This document shows, piece after piece, positions 1,066-7,398 of a stretch of DNA of 37,457 nt. Positions within the stretch are counted from its first letter, which is position 1, and each line of letters begins with the position of its first letter. Origin of the DNA: Cladosporium halotolerans (taxonomy: Eukaryota); the NCBI RefSeq assembly GCF_011745625.1, contig NW_027191503.1, forward strand, positions 62,001 through 99,457, read 5' to 3'. Position numbers and translations under genes: made by a program. Under the pieces are notes generated by a model. That model was not told where the DNA came from, did not search any database, and worked only from the letters and a program-made list of their open reading frames with translations.

Positions 1066-3249
1066 ATGAATAGTGCGCAAATGAGCCATCACTCTTATAA
1101 CAATACGAGCATCAGTGGAGATGCGCGAGCTCACTTGGGAAACGTCTTCAACTTCTCGTCGGCAGATTCTGAAGAACAAGACATGCTCGATTGGTTAACA
1201 ACACTCAACCCTTCTGCTAGCCATGATCATGCTTGCAAGCAATACCAAGAGGGCACGCTCCGCTGGATTTTTGACCATGCTACGTTTCGGAATTGGCGCG
1301 ATCGACCAAACACCTTGTTGCCTCAAGCTCTTTGGTGCAGAGGGGGCATAGGAACTGGAAAGACCACCCTGGTAGCGCGAATCTTGAACCACCTCCAAGA
1401 AAGAGGCAAGCCAAGAGGGACCTTGGCTGTGGTGTACTGTCAATACTCCAAACGAGATATTCTGACTGTTGAGACTGTCATGGGCTCTATTTTAGCTCAG
1501 CTGTACCAGCACAGTGAGGGAGGTTTTGGGATACCCGCACACATCAAGGCAGCATACAAATCCCAACCTCGATTCTGGAGAAGGAGTCCGACTCTAGAGC
1601 AGCTTAAAACCTGGTTTCGTCTGAGGCTGGAAGATGAAAATGCTGTGTTTGTGCTGGTGGATGCAGTTGATGAACTCACTCCCAAGCTTCGAAGAAAACT
1701 GCTTCACTCGATGCAATCGACGTCTCGACTGAAGCTCCTAGTTACGAGTCGAGATGCACCAGAAATGGAAACGGACGTGTTTGAAAAGCAAGAGGTAGAG
1801 ATCCGAGCTCACGAGACTGATCTCCAGATCTTGGTGAAAAGCAAACTCCGCGAGGAGGGCACAGAAGCATTGAGACGGCTTATACTAAGCAAACCTGGAA
1901 ATGATCTGTCTTTCTCGACCGATGAAGAACAGATTGTATCTAAAGTCACTCAATTGGCTCAGGAAATGTGCGCTCAGTACCACCATGGCTTTTCGTAAGT
2001 ATGGTAACAGCTAACATATATAGGTTTTTGCATGCGGCGCTGAACTTGGATCGTGTGCTGGAGTGCCAGAGACTGGAAGATGTCGGCCATTCGTTGAACC
2101 ATCTCCATATCAAATTGGATTCATATTACGACAAGGCCTGGGAAAGAGCAACCGACGACCAAACCCAGCTGAGATGTCAACGCGCAAAGCTTATCCTGAT
2201 GTGGGCAACTCTTGCTAAGCAGCCGCTCACAGTAGCGGCGCTGAGAGAAGCGATCCGAGCTTCCGGAGGTGGAGTGAAGGATGAAGTCCTTGCTGAAGAA
2301 GAAATTGAATCATATTGTGCAGGGCTTATCCGCGTGGAGCCACTGCCATTGCGACGATGCTCGTCCAAGAAAGTCGAAACAGTATCTGGAAGCGTAGATG
2401 GCGGAACTTCAAGCAACTCTGTGATTGCATTCCGTCATGTGAGTGCTCACCACTATTTCGAAAGGATGCAAGATACACACTTTCCTTCCTCAAGCAAGGC
2501 GATCGTGGCCGCATGCTTGTTGCACTCTAGTCCAGCCGAAGCACTCTCTGCACTACCAATGTGCCACATCCTAAGCACTGAGTAAAGCACCCCTAGGTTA
2601 AGCATTTCTCAGTCAAATCAAATGACTAATGTGAAGCAGTATACCGTTGCTGGTTGCTCTCCTTTTTGTTTTCAGTATTCTTCGGACAATACTGGACTTA
2701 CTGATTGTCACGCTCGGGATCTGGCTTTTTTACTGGACACCACGCAGGTACTGTCAAGATGTTCTTCTCTCGTTCTCTCCGGCACCAGCCGCCCTGACGT
2801 TCTCTGGGTACATACACATCTTTTTGCGCAGGCACGTGGCTGCGGCCCCTCTGTCTTCGAAAGTACAGACGCTGGGTAAGATCATCAAAAGTCCATCGTT
2901 TTACGGGTACATGTTGCTGAGCGAGCTGCTTATATTGGCAATGATGTGTGAAGAAAAGTCTTTAGGGAGTAGCTTCCTGAGATTGCGGATCGTAACTCTG
3001 ACTTTGTTCGCCTTATGGGTGTCAACCAGGCCTATCTGGATAGTGAATGTTAGGTGGATGAGATGGGCGGATGGCGAGATATATGGCCATCTGTATCTAA
3101 AACATTGGATGTTTCCTAGCGTCATAATGTCCATTATTGGGCTGTATATTTATCCGGAAACTCTAACCCTCAGCTTGGTCCCTGCATTGTTTGTTGCGAT
3201 AGCATTGGAATTGCCCCGGTGGTGCGGACGTAGAGCTGAGAACACATAA
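1066..3249 (+). CDS. Fungal NLR-like NACHT NTPase with N-terminal HET-s-related amyloid motif and hydrophobic multi-TM C-terminus (~689 aa; exons 1066-1967, 2024-2581, 2640-3249)
   Basis: Pre-NACHT segment (LDWL..., QEGTLRWIFDHATFRNW), Walker A GGIGTGKT, Walker B FVLVDAVDE, LLVTSR. Intron 1968-2023 (GTGCGC..GCTAAC..TAG) restores the typical EMFLHAALNL motif. Intron 2582-2639 (GTAAAG..ACTAAT..CAG) joins in frame to the hydrophobic 2647-3249 ORF. Exon 3 linkage is less certain than the NACHT call. Confidence 0.8.
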
Positions 3250-4212
3250 AAAGACCACTCATATACTCATAATTTTATCGTTTTCGTTGGCTTTGAAACG
3301 ACAACACAACTATAGAGGTATATCATAAGTCTCAGATATAGAAGATATTCCAGGCCTCAATCAGTGTATATCTTCAAGCTGAGAGCCTTTTAGTTTTCAA
3401 GACACGATATACCAATTTTCGGAAACATAACGCAGCCTCCCTGCCTCAAGCTCACCGCTTTCGGCATCATCCGCAATCCTCTCACATATCCATGTCCAAT
3501 TCGGCCCTCGACCAATTCTTTTCCGATGCGAACACCGCGTGTAGATCGTATGAGTACGAAGACGCTCAATCGACGCTGATGACTTCGGACGACATCGCTA
3601 TCATCGGACCTAGAATCGAGTCTCCGATCGCATATCGACTCCCTCAATTCCGCCTTTCTCAGGATTCTAGTCGACCCGGATCATTGACTTTGCACTGCGA
3701 TATCTCGATCAGACAGACATCTCCCCGTCGAACATCATCATCTCCCACGAGCGATCAAACCAGGATTCAACTTGCCTGCTCCTCTCGGAAAATGGACGAA
3801 CCGATGATGTACAGGCCTCCGTGCAGACATGCTCGGATGTCAGGTCTGCTGTTGTTCCCTTGACGACGATCGAGATGGGATGTGGTGATTATGAGAGCCA
3901 GCTTAGCACAAGCTATCCAGACTCGGGTGGAGTCTTGAGGATATCGGTGCGTAATCGTTATTAAAGTAATGATGAGGAGACATCACCTCTTTTGGTCTTG
4001 GGAATTGATCCACAACGATTGGAAACCAAATTGAGAGGTCGCCACTCGTCAAAGCCTCAGTCCGTTTTCTTTCCCAGATTGAGGTTCGACAGTAAAGGAA
4101 TGAAATACAAGGCACGATCCATCAGGATACGTCGCCATAAGGCAGCGGCAAGGACCAAGATTCTACGTCAGAAAGCCGAGGTTTACATAGAAAATCAATG
4201 CTACCAAATGGA

Positions 4213-5484
4213 TCACGCAGCGGTCGTCTCCCCTGCCGCCAGCGCCATGAGCCTTTCGACAAGGGATGTTCGGCAAACACGGGACTGGCGCTTGACGCCA
4301 TCATCAGCAGGTAGTGACTGGACCGTGGGTGTCTCTCCTTCCGCAGGAGCGTCTATTTCAATCATCCACCATCCTGAAGCTGGCCTAAGACAATCCAGCA
4401 GCTGGCTCTCGCCTTCTTCAAGGTCCGCAACGCTACTTGTGGCTTGGATCCCAACCGAGCCAGCGACCATTTTGGTATGGTAGATCTGGCCATTGTCGTT
4501 CACTGTAACCGGAACAGAGGCCGCGCCGGACGGTATGTTGTTGGTGTCGACTCGATGGTAGAAGATGCCATCAAGCTCGCATCCAGCTGCCCGTCCCTGG
4601 AAGCACTGCAAGCTGACCGGCGGTTGGGCGCATCCTTTATACAGACTCCTTCCTTTCTCGTTCCAAAAGCAGAACGCTGTGATCCACCCTGAGAGATAAA
4701 AGGGTCCACTACCTCCAGTCTCATGGGCGATCTTGCCCCAGAAATCCTTCACAGCTGACGAGGCTGGATGATCGAACGTTTCGATGAAGTGGCCCACGAT
4801 CGGCTTCAGCAGTTCTCCAAATTGCTCCGGCTCCTTCCCCAAGTATTTGAGTTTCTCCAGTCGAGTTTGGATTTCGACCCAATCCTCGCGTTCGCCAAGT
4901 AGGGTAACGGACGGGATACCACAGGACAACGTCATCTTGTACGAGAAATACTCCTGCATCGCCCCCATCATCATGATGGCAAAGACGACTCGGTCCGTCT
5001 CTGTCGTCGTGCTGAAGCTGGGCATGATCCAAGCTCTGAGGTCTGGGTCCACGACGTTCTTCTGGATTTCTCCAGTCATGCGTTGAGCCATCACACCAAA
5101 ATCGGCGGAGTGCAGGCTTCCTATATCCATGACTTCAAGCTCCTTCTGTCCTTCGTGCGACACGAAGAAGTGTCGCAGCTCTTCTGCGTGCGCATTGACA
5201 AAGTATCCTGTCTGGCAAAGAATCGCAGACCAAACGTCGTCCGGCCTGAGTGTGAGGTGATGATGGCGGCTGTATGCATGATACGCAGCATACACAAGAC
5301 CGTTCTCGGAGGGCGAGATATGGTTCTGTTCCAAGAAGCTGCGTGAGAACGAACTCTGGACGATGCCCTTGCTTGCTTCGAAATGCTGTGGACAAGATCC
5401 TTTGAGCAAGTCCTTCTCCGATTCGGCTTTGGAGTTCCTCCAAGCATCAGCTGGGCGGTTGGCAACCGCTATCGTGACAGGCAT
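4213..5484 (-). CDS. DUF4419-family protein (~423 aa; in-frame upstream ATG at 5730 is an alternative start)
   Basis: Motifs NGLVYAAYHAYSRHHHLTLRPDDVW, FSTTT, CGIPSVTLLGEREDW and SGWITAFCFW are characteristic of DUF4419 proteins; intronless ORF. Confidence 0.8.
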   Translation of the reverse strand: MPVTIAVANRPADAWRNSKAESEKDLLKGSCPQHFEASKGIVQSSFSRSFLEQNHISPSENGLVYAAYHAYSRHHHLTLRPDDVWSAILCQTGYFVNAHAEELRHFFVSHEGQKELEVMDIGSLHSADFGVMAQRMTGEIQKNVVDPDLRAWIMPSFSTTTETDRVVFAIMMMGAMQEYFSYKMTLSCGIPSVTLLGEREDWVEIQTRLEKLKYLGKEPEQFGELLKPIVGHFIETFDHPASSAVKDFWGKIAHETGGSGPFYLSGWITAFCFWNEKGRSLYKGCAQPPVSLQCFQGRAAGCELDGIFYHRVDTNNIPSGAASVPVTVNDNGQIYHTKMVAGSVGIQATSSVADLEEGESQLLDCLRPASGWWMIEIDAPAEGETPTVQSLPADDGVKRQSRVCRTSLVERLMALAAGETTAA

Positions 5485-5529
5485 CTTCAATCTTTTATCA
5501 CTACAGGGTGCAAGGAAATGGGTGTGCGA

Positions 5530-5680
5530 TTGATGCTCTTTTGTAGAAGATGAAACCGGTGAAGAGATCAGTTGAGCCAAGATTCGAGCAGACTGATCAC
5601 CGCAACGGCCAAGGAATGGTTGATGCTCTTTGGTAGAAACGGAAACCGGTGAACAGCTCGCCACCAGCTGAAAGAGGATT
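5530..5680. repeat. Degenerate direct repeat, two copies 90 bp apart
   Basis: TTGATGCTCTTTTGTAGAAGATGAAACCGGTGAA at 5530 vs TTGATGCTCTTTGGTAGAAACGGAAACCGGTGAA at 5620. Confidence 0.75.
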
Positions 5681-7398
5681 TGTGCGGGGCTGTGCAGCCG
5701 ATTCGACGTATGCGCTATACCGTGACACATGTTCAAATACTTTCTCCAACCCTCAATTGTATGACTCTTCGCAAAGATATCCCCAAAAGTGAGTGGCCAG
5801 TTTTAAAGTTAGCGGAAATGTTATCGTAGACGAGATCGGTATCCGTTTCACAGATGTTAGATCCGAAAGATCATGATCACTTAGTCAGTCACCTGTAGCG
5901 GGCGAGTGTTATATACAGTGTAATGCATTTTGACATCAAATCAGACAGAAGTTTTAGTGGCAAGCTCTCTGCGGACGCGCAAGAATGCTACCTCCAAGGG
6001 GTGATGCTATATCAGGAACATTCCACCCTTCGTGTATAGGGATGAGACGACGTTGCTCACTTGACGTTCCACCCGATTCTCACCTCTGGCTTCTCCGGCC
6101 AACAGCGTTTTCGTCCTACTCGAGAAGTGTCCGTTGTGACCTACGGTGAAGCCTCCCAATCGTCCAGCAAGTCAATAGCAACGAAAGGGTCAAAATGGTC
6201 ACTGCCAATGCTACTCCGGCTACACTGGTCATCAAGAGCCCGGTGATATCTAGATACTTTGTTTGCATTGGTGAAGGGAACGCAGCGCCCGCCTCTAAGA
6301 GCCGAAACTTGCCGCTAAGATGGTTCGTGGGAGGGATATCGGTTGTGAGCCTCAGACGGAAAAAGGTGTCTGTCTCAATGTCGGTCAGGATTGTCCAGCG
6401 GTAGAGCATTACACCGACGAAGTCATATTTGCACAAGGTGTCGAGTCGCGAGATGGCCATCGAGTAGTTGCCCTGTTCACCGAATGGCGCGCCGCCTTTC
6501 CAGAATGCAGAAGAATTGGTGGGTGCTGTGGTCTCCTGTAAACATGCTTGCGCGACGATACGTCGATGGGAAGGGGGACGGACGCATTATTTCACGCAAT
6601 ATCTTTGAAGTGTCATCGTCTCCGACAATCTCGATAGAAAATTGCGCGGAATTGTTGAAAGGCCGTTCGAACGGATGACCTGGCTGCGGTTCAGCTTGAG
6701 GGTTGCCTTTGAAAGAGATCCATGAGCTCTCTACCATGCTTCCAGGTTCGTAGTTTTCCGAGCTCAATGACCCCTGGCACCGTAAAAGTGCCTGGCTCAG
6801 CGGATTGGATGTCGAAGTAGCCGACGTTGCCATTTGGATCCAGAAATGGGAGGTTGCACTTGTCCGCGATATCGATTGATAACTGTGAAGATGACATGAC
6901 TGTTCTGATCAGAAGCAAAAAGGAGCTCCTGCGGGCGATGTCGGACTGTGTGTAGATGTCAAGTGAATGACAAGAAGCCCTGCAGCGAGATGCATACCTG
7001 CTGCTATGCGAAGCGGCGAGCTGAGCAAAATAATTAACGACTCACGAATGCAGGGTGCAACCCCGGCGCATCTTGATTGCCTGATCCTGGCGGCAAGCTG
7101 GTTCCCCTACCCGCCAATCTCGCGTAAACGCGCGGCTACAGAGGTGACCAACAGATGAAGAGCGGCGTCCTAGCTTGCATTCGGGCACCTGTCCGCCAGT
7201 TACAAAAAGTCGGCGGTAACCCCTCTTGACGATGAATGTCACGTGATAGCTCTCAGTCACGCTCATAGTCTTATTTCAAGTGACTCAAGCAGAAGCACGT
7301 GCGCTCAGCTCTCGAACGAAGTGAAGCAGCGCTAGTCTCCTGCCTCGCAGCCTCAGGCCTGTGCCAAGCCCCGCGCTGCGGTCGCCGCGCGACGCCAG

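Follow-up and report, generated by a model that had tools for sequence, protein, structure and literature searches.

To our knowledge, the fungal NOD-like receptors (NLRs) described so far in amyloid signalling sense via soluble WD40, ANK or TPR repeats and use a separate pore-forming partner. HeLo effectors act at the membrane. In the NWD2/HET-S system of Podospora anserina, the receptor NWD2 has a single N-terminal HET-s-related amyloid motif (HRAM), called r0, ahead of its NACHT domain and no globular effector domain; its C-terminus is made of WD40 repeats and its gene adjoins het-S. The present work concerns a gene located at 1066-3249 on the + strand of a 37,457-nucleotide stretch of Cladosporium halotolerans DNA (positions 62,001 to 99,457 of contig NW_027191503.1), called the window hereafter. 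Its predicted product resembles NWD2 at the N-terminus, where six of the 21 residues of the window motif (G12, A14, R15, H17, G19 and N20) are also present in the r0 of NWD2 as printed in PMC4518210. Unlike NWD2, the window gene encodes a hydrophobic C-terminal tail, and no HeLo gene was found in the 1 kb before it or the 34 kb after it. An N-terminal r0 followed by NACHT is known; the exchange of the repeats for a hydrophobic multi-helix tail appears to be the new part.

The r0 NLRs collected by Daskalov, Dyrka and Saupe in 2015 (PMC4518210) have a motif of the same position, length and pattern, but they were identified via an adjacent effector, which was not found at the window locus. The HRAM3-like motif NLR12 (Wojciechowski et al. 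2022, PMC9815663) is another HRAM relative carried on short NLR N-termini; unlike the window motif, it was reported mainly from Sordariomycetes. The effectors of NLR12 are often non-adjacent, with an NLR to effector ratio of 5.7:1 and one motif copy on PNP_UDP (PMC9815663), and such non-adjacency would fit the absent neighbour at the window locus. Among the search matches, the nearest repeat-bearing NACHT relative is P0003 from Aspergillus venezuelensis, a PNP_UDP-NACHT-ankyrin protein that aligns to 91% of exon 1 at 30% identity. An enzymatic effector domain fused at the N-terminus and a long array of ankyrin repeats set it apart from the window protein, as does the lack of both an amyloid motif and a hydrophobic tail.

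The original prediction did not recognise the window architecture as characterised, and the literature searched is in agreement with it. No description of such a fungal architecture was obtained when full texts were searched for NACHT together with transmembrane terms, and the word "transmembrane" has 0 occurrences in the fungal NLR surveys of Dyrka et al. 2014 and Wojciechowski et al. 2022 (PMC9815663). The label "TMH" is present in a legend of a 2026 paper on NLR architectures across the domains of life. In a conserved family with the order r0, NACHT and membrane-type tail, the signalosome may assemble on the membrane, or the receptor may take the state of the membrane as its input. With a peptide of 24 residues, a single gene and a predicted class of partner, the family of the window gene is also a compact and testable case in which the exchange of NLR input domains can be addressed.

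NACHT core, hydrophobic tail and gene model

On the + strand, open reading frames (ORFs) follow one another in frame 1 (1066-1998), frame 0 (1968-2585) and frame 1 (2647-3249). Joined as a three-exon gene (Table 1), they make up 2070 bases, with 689 codons and a single stop at the end. Exon 1 matched Pfam PF24883 (NPHP3_N) with 98.8 bits for a cut-off of 24.8 (E = 5e-28, residues 63-229), and PF05729 (NACHT) with 27.9 bits, barely over its cut-off of 26.7 (E = 2.4e-6). The locus encodes an NLR-type signal transduction ATPase with numerous domains (STAND NTPase) in which Walker A and Walker B are intact. In exon 2, the winged-helix family GPIID_WHD was found at E = 2.2e-4 with 22 bits, under the cut-off of 27. 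No WD40, ANK, TPR or LRR family was detected by Pfam in exons 2 and 3 at E<=1, which bears out the claim that WD40, ankyrin and TPR repeats are missing after NACHT. About 62 residues precede the Pfam domain, and not the ~35 originally given; the N-terminus is nonetheless short, with the motif at residues 7-30.

Word-indexed protein searches were thin, with 3 matches among 7999 scored candidates and 3 among 8000. Exon 1 has 44-47% identity to P0001, P0002 and P0007, and exon 2 has 46% identity to residues 329-514 of P0001 over all its 186 residues, up to the last one (E = 1e-56). P0001 (751 aa, 46% identity) is one protein from ORF-type callers in several assemblies. It continues past the exon-2 equivalent into a hydrophobic tail, of which residues 591-633 match exon-3 residues 51-93 (E = 1e-5). 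P0002 (737 aa, 45% identity), an NCBI model from Cladosporium fusiforme, also passes from NACHT into a hydrophobic tail. A scan of metagenomes gave 136 pattern matches, from which five loci were confirmed (L001-L005). The relative on L002 is 53% identical to the window protein, with a model of three exons (1203-2296, 2359-2925, 2991-3600) and 756 aa. Homologues keeping the order HRAM, NACHT and hydrophobic segment were found in this way, in P0001, P0002 and the L002 model.

The passage from NACHT to a hydrophobic tail is common to the four full-length members (window, P0001, P0002 and L002), each of which has 3-4 distinct tail segments at a Kyte-Doolittle value of >=1.6. Their tails have a grand average of hydropathy (GRAVY) of +0.25 to +0.93, against -0.19 to -0.60 in the remainder of each protein, and no repeat family was detected in P0001, in P0002 or in the L002 tail at E<=0.01. 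Since hydrophobic tails, rather than ankyrin repeats, follow in these closest relatives, the window copy is not a truncated repeat-NLR. The tails of the relatives have diverged quickly, with 21-28% identity to that of the window. In pairwise BLASTP of the tails, half of the ten pairs reach E<1e-4; four of these five are pairs of the P0001 tail (with the window, L002, P0002 and P0005), with E values between 3e-6 and 3e-5 and always in the same Y-x-H...H element, and no BLASTP match was obtained between the L002 and P0005 tails. As judged from these sequences, the order of NACHT, helical region and hydrophobic tail is conserved, and the tails are genuinely, though weakly, homologous. The architecture itself is very likely to be real. 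The family may be small, with four full-length members plus orthologue fragments, a size that could also be caused by the limits of the search.

Within exon 3, a 19-residue Kyte-Doolittle window gives three segments at >=1.6 and about five distinct ones at >=1.2, so that the "5-6 hydrophobic segments" first announced are a fair upper count. The GRAVY of the tail is +0.71 vs -0.37 for the rest of the window protein. Exon 3 had zero Pfam matches at E<=1, and the best ESM Atlas score on the tail was 0.78, under the meaningful level. By phmmer, three matches to exon 3 were obtained among 1.84 billion representatives: P0004, which is 91% identical, P0005, which is 50% identical across 187 aa (E = 6e-41), and P0006. 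The first two are ORF-caller fragments of the same gene family, and P0005 begins ~6 residues past the exon-3 boundary, at an ORF-caller start. Since both come from ORF-style callers applied to metagenome or run assemblies, they are uninformative on the exon structure. P0006 (2529 aa, 26 stretches) was rejected as a tail homologue; its only domain match is a sub-threshold one to an outer-membrane transporter, and it was taken as a repeat or composition match. On hydropathy, the tail is probably embedded in a membrane; its hypothetical action as a sensor appears doubtful.

The assignment of the introns was made by comparison. For intron 1, other in-frame donors are present at 1977 (intron of 47 nt) and 1995 (29 nt), and the two in-frame gene models that were compared each have one terminal stop. 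A length of 29 nt is too short for a fungal intron. The donor at 1968 was preferred because the M and F bordering the intron-1 site are adjacent, with zero residues between them, in the NCBI models P0002 and P0007 and in L002, and because the L002 intron is at the same place and phase. In the L002 model both introns interrupt the same codons in the same phases as in the window gene. Intron 2 splits a codon for D in the window gene, where IPLL comes next, and a codon for E in L002, where VPLL comes next. The 58-nt intron 2 stands exactly as originally proposed, and the model is in frame. In P0001, inserts of ~20 residues (~309-328 and 515-534) fall exactly at the window and L002 intron sites; from their sequence, they look like in-frame, stop-free retained introns. 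In X1, a 96%-identical relative, a 1-base insertion after 3164 and a 1-base deletion at 3170, six bases apart, leave the frame of exon 3 intact. The X1 contig diverges completely from the window just past the stop at 3249. Codon-position GC did not separate exon 3 from its flanks.

The N-terminal motif

The start of the peptide quoted in the original prediction, at 1090, was recovered in the ORF translation from ATG 1066. The HET-s repeat 1 to which this peptide had been aligned is as printed in the supplement of PMC4518210, and it aligns without gaps to window residues 7-27 with 7/21 identical positions. The published HRAM rule, in a 21-residue numbering, asks for an invariant G19, for hydrophobic residues at 5, 8, 10, 16 and 18 and preferably for R or K at 15; the residue at position 3 (N, Q or H) differs between subfamilies, H marking HRAM3 and Q marking HRAM2 (PMC4518210). 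Twelve distinct instances of the motif were collected, from the window, P0001, P0002, P0007-P0014 and L004; L005 and L001, which duplicate L004 and L002, were not counted. G19 and R/K15 are present in all twelve. At least four of the five core positions are hydrophobic in 8/12 instances and exactly three in the remaining 4/12; in the window motif they are Y, T, I, A and L, with 4/5 hydrophobic. By comparison, 51 of 58,819 random six-frame 21-mers pass the rule with at least four hydrophobic positions. Position 3 is H in four instances (window, P0001, P0007 and P0009), Q in five and R in three, the subfamily being assigned by eye.

G19 is found at residue 25-32 in 11/12 instances, with P0008 (residue 80) as the other one, and HRAMs on NLR N-termini were reported to start mostly at positions 5-9 (PMC9815663). 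Residues G18, H23, G25 and N29 of the window protein are invariant in 4/4 full alignments, while residues 1-7 drift among the relatives. The motif is conserved to about the same degree as NACHT (35-43% vs 43-48% in distant relatives, 70-91% vs 69-97% in close ones).

The r0 motifs of NLRs adjoining HRAM-bearing HeLo-related proteins are printed in a supplementary table of PMC4518210. Comparison with it by eye revealed one r0 entry sharing ISGDAR-x-H-x-GN with the window and another sharing ARAHIGNV; the closest of the entries compared has 9/21 residues identical to the window motif. Two Dothideomycete r0 entries match P0002 (RQHNG) and P0007 (GHT...ASGN...VHLGD), and an effector-side repeat terminates in AR-x-HLGNI. 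H at position 17, as in the window, is found in 12 of the 19 r0 motifs of part 1 of the table. S and H are over-represented in published r0 motifs, and D, E and K are scarce (PMC4518210); the composition of the window motif agrees with this. Six motif strings from the family of the window gene had 0 occurrences in the searchable supplementary files of PMC9815663. On the basis of these sequence comparisons, of which the likeness to the tabulated r0 motifs weighs most, the motif can with good confidence be placed in the r0/HRAM class.

The motif also heads an NLR of another type. On L004 and L005, a protein with an NPHP3_N/NACHT core carries the motif ISDSAKAHLGNIYNF, nearly the same as ISGDARAHLGNVFNF of the window; unlike the window protein, it has canonical WD40 repeats at its C-terminus, belongs to a different NACHT lineage and has an intron right behind the motif. 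For this reason, the motif is regarded as a module shared between NLR classes. The post-motif intron of this NLR (L004:1439-3733 and L005:1599-2775) reads GTAAGC...CTGAC...TAG. No effector-like gene was found in the 1.4-1.6 kb upstream of it; the upstream frames are C2H2-like in L004 and alcohol-dehydrogenase-like in L005.

Proposed mechanism and rival explanations

By analogy with NWD2/HET-S, an activating cue would lead to oligomerisation of the NACHT domain, and the oligomer would gather several r0 motifs into a beta-solenoid amyloid nucleus. This nucleus would template the matching C-terminal HRAM of a separate HeLo or HeLo-like (or PNP_UDP) cell-death effector encoded elsewhere. The tail would hold the signalosome at the membrane and may stand in for the missing repeats as a regulatory or input module. 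We infer membrane insertion, amyloid templating, the existence of the partner and the sensing role of the tail. That the signal goes to a separate effector is somewhat favoured. For the gene product as a whole, a membrane-tethered, NWD2-like HRAM-signalling NLR of a filamentous ascomycete, the chances are judged to be even. Of the membrane-anchored amyloid receptor first proposed, the r0 motif and the hydrophobic tails of the relatives are upheld, whereas the cognate effector was not found in the window, in the five loci or by the profile search.

Several results weigh against this reading, and they are considered here together with the rival explanations. On the side of the gene, no spliced read or contig was obtained in four runs, all contigs being genomic-like and free of joints; X9, a 151-base contig of depth 2 from a recorded RNA library (window 1906-2056), retains intron 1 and could be pre-mRNA or DNA carry-over; and both intron donors are non-consensus (GTGCGC and GTAAAG). 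Since the four runs gave no spliced contig and X9 is unspliced through intron 1, the evidence for splicing is comparative, and we infer the splicing of both introns from the relatives. P0007, a 510-aa Cladosporium fusiforme paralogue, is annotated without a tail. The window tail reaches only E = 1.5 with L002 and E = 0.015 with P0002 in BLASTP, the hydropathy profiles of distant members correlate with r of 0.22-0.66, several pairs being no better than the best shifted control, and the AlphaFold2 model of the tail from a 5-row alignment, all-helical with seven helices, has a predicted local distance difference test score (pLDDT) of 43.7 and is unreliable. One rival explanation is a wrong gene model, in which a truncated NACHT protein devoid of repeats ends at TAA 2583-2585 and 2647-3249 is either a small gene of its own for a membrane protein or an open frame that does not code. 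The in-frame stop is indeed present, the orthologue ORF P0012 ends at the same residue, ORF callers deliver the tail as separate proteins (P0004, P0005 and P0018), and the lack of spliced reads would fit. However, these callers do not model introns, and exon 3 lacks an ATG upstream of its residue 91. NACHT and hydrophobic tail are joined in one protein in P0001 and in the NCBI model P0002. In L002, which has its intron at the corresponding codon and in the same phase, the frame reopens into a hydrophobic tail, and P0005 shows conservation of the tail at the protein level. A wrong gene model is considered very unlikely.

As for the motif and its partner, the protein had no match to Pfam HET-s_218-289 (PF11558) at E<=1, and the motif profile found no HET-s, HELLF or other amyloid entry among PDB sequences at E<=10; to this extent the HRAM claim, otherwise in line with the HRAM rule and the likeness to r0, is not sustained by profile matches. 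The PDB matches of the profile were an archaeal hypothetical protein (E = 0.07) and IgA1 protease (E = 0.83, not significant). The IgA1 protease stretch SNITASDNAKVHIG aligns to window 1111-1146 (motif residues 16-27), a resemblance which may reflect the generic look of a beta-solenoid rung. No second copy of the motif was detected in the window (1 kb upstream and 34 kb downstream) or in L001-L005 by hmmsearch with all filters off on 1490 six-frame pieces and by a regular-expression scan; above the inclusion threshold, hmmsearch returned only the five NLR N-termini. The motif-profile protein search on 1035 candidates gave ten matches, all of them NACHT proteins and none an effector, and this search, which needs shared 5-residue words, is weak for a 40-aa profile. 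No HeLo, SesA or PNP_UDP was found among the Pfam matches of the downstream window frames, and the 13 small frames of 1-1065 had no Pfam match at E<=10. As a rival reading, the motif could be a conserved N-terminal peptide with another role, such as NACHT autoinhibition, a degron or a targeting signal, and be HRAM-like by convergence. The empty partner search and the missing profile matches would agree with it, as would the looseness of the positional rule (168 of 58,819 random 21-mers pass with three hydrophobic positions) and the T, which is not hydrophobic, at position 8 in 7/12 instances. It is opposed by the long identical runs shared with listed r0 motifs of NLRs adjoining HRAM-bearing HeLo proteins and by the presence of the motif at the same N-terminal position of two different NLR classes; the Pfam miss weighs little because PF11558 hits only 38/155 accepted HRAM proteins (PMC4518210). 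A motif that does not form amyloid is held to be improbable. The same empty search can also be read as a sign that the tail is itself the executioner: clustering driven by NACHT would produce a membrane lesion or channel, and r0 would receive or pass on activation between r0-bearing NLRs, for instance from a NACHT-WD40 sensor carrying the same motif, in a sensor/helper pair coupled via amyloid templating. The occurrence of the motif on the NACHT-WD40 NLR, the lack of a HeLo, HeLo-like or PNP_UDP partner in all the searches and a protein without recognisable ligand-binding repeats are compatible with this proposal. However, L004 and L005 come from other organisms, so that the two NLR types need not occur together in one genome, the effector search is weak by design (word index and 40-aa profile), and the tail is unlike any known pore former in Pfam or the ESM Atlas. 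Moreover, the r0 motifs of the published pairs have HeLo-related partners, and the absent neighbour weighs little, because an adjacent NLR accompanies only 98/155 HeLo-related proteins in the published set (PMC4518210) and because non-adjacent partners are common for NLR12. An executioner tail is judged unlikely, and little probability is likewise given to its bolder form, a membrane-embedded NLR whose multi-helix tail would itself execute death or sense the membrane, with r0 wiring the protein to other r0-bearing NLRs, such as the NACHT-WD40 type with the same motif, and no need for a HeLo-type effector. If true, fungal NLRs would form a sensor/helper network at the membrane, linked through prion-like templating. 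The membrane-tethered receptor signalling to a separate effector is the reading retained here.

Feature coordinates and neighbouring genes

Table 1. Coordinates of the features of the NLR gene in the window
Feature	Position	Strand	Remarks
Exon 1: motif, linker, NPHP3_N/NACHT	1066..1967	+	residues 1-300 plus 2 bases of codon 301; ORF from ATG 1066
HRAM-type (r0-like) motif	1084..1155	+	residues 7-30; 21-residue core, residues 7-27
NPHP3_N/NACHT P-loop NTPase core	1252..1752	+	residues 63-229; Pfam
Walker A GGIGTGKTT	1342..1368	+	G96, T97, G98, K99, T100, T101 invariant in 4/4 aligned sequences
Walker B region VFVLVDAVDE	1645..1674	+	D199, A200, D202, E203 invariant in 4/4 aligned sequences
Intron 1 (donor preferred from comparison)	1968..2023	+	56 nt, GTGCGC...GCTAAC...TAG; ORFs 1066-1998 and 1968-2585 are in different frames
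Exon 2: helical, putative winged-helix region behind NACHT	2024..2581	+	residues 301-486 plus 2 bases of codon 487
Intron 2	2582..2639	+	58 nt, GTAAAG...CTAAT...CAG; in-frame TAA 2583-2585 inside donor
Exon 3: hydrophobic C-terminal tail, ~200 aa	2640..3249	+	stop 3247-3249; 204-codon open frame
Hydrophobic segment A	2647..2739	+	31 residues, Kyte-Doolittle peak 2.46
Best-conserved tail element Y-x-H...H-x-x-x-A	2785..2850	+	links tails of all relatives; BLASTP tail matches all fall here
Hydrophobic segment B, weaker	2890..2952	+	Kyte-Doolittle 1.4
Hydrophobic segment C	2989..3051	+	Kyte-Doolittle 1.65
Hydrophobic segments D, E	3109..3228	+	Kyte-Doolittle 1.48 (D), 1.84 (E); overlapping windows

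The G+C content of the NLR gene is 0.48-0.51 per exon vs 0.56 for the whole window, and its flanks are at 0.49 (1-1065) and 0.47 (3250-3900). The next downstream gene, at 4213-5802 on the - strand and convergent with the NLR gene, codes for a DUF4419 protein (Pfam, 1.6e-115). Further on, the region 7976-30215 is not an NLR cluster and contains genes of housekeeping type, for Apc15, a carboxylesterase, a proteasome alpha-type subunit, a cohesin loading factor, an alpha/beta hydrolase, a UPF0220 protein, a Meth_synt_2 protein and a fatty-acid desaturase. The carboxylesterase spans two frames and is likely to contain an intron.

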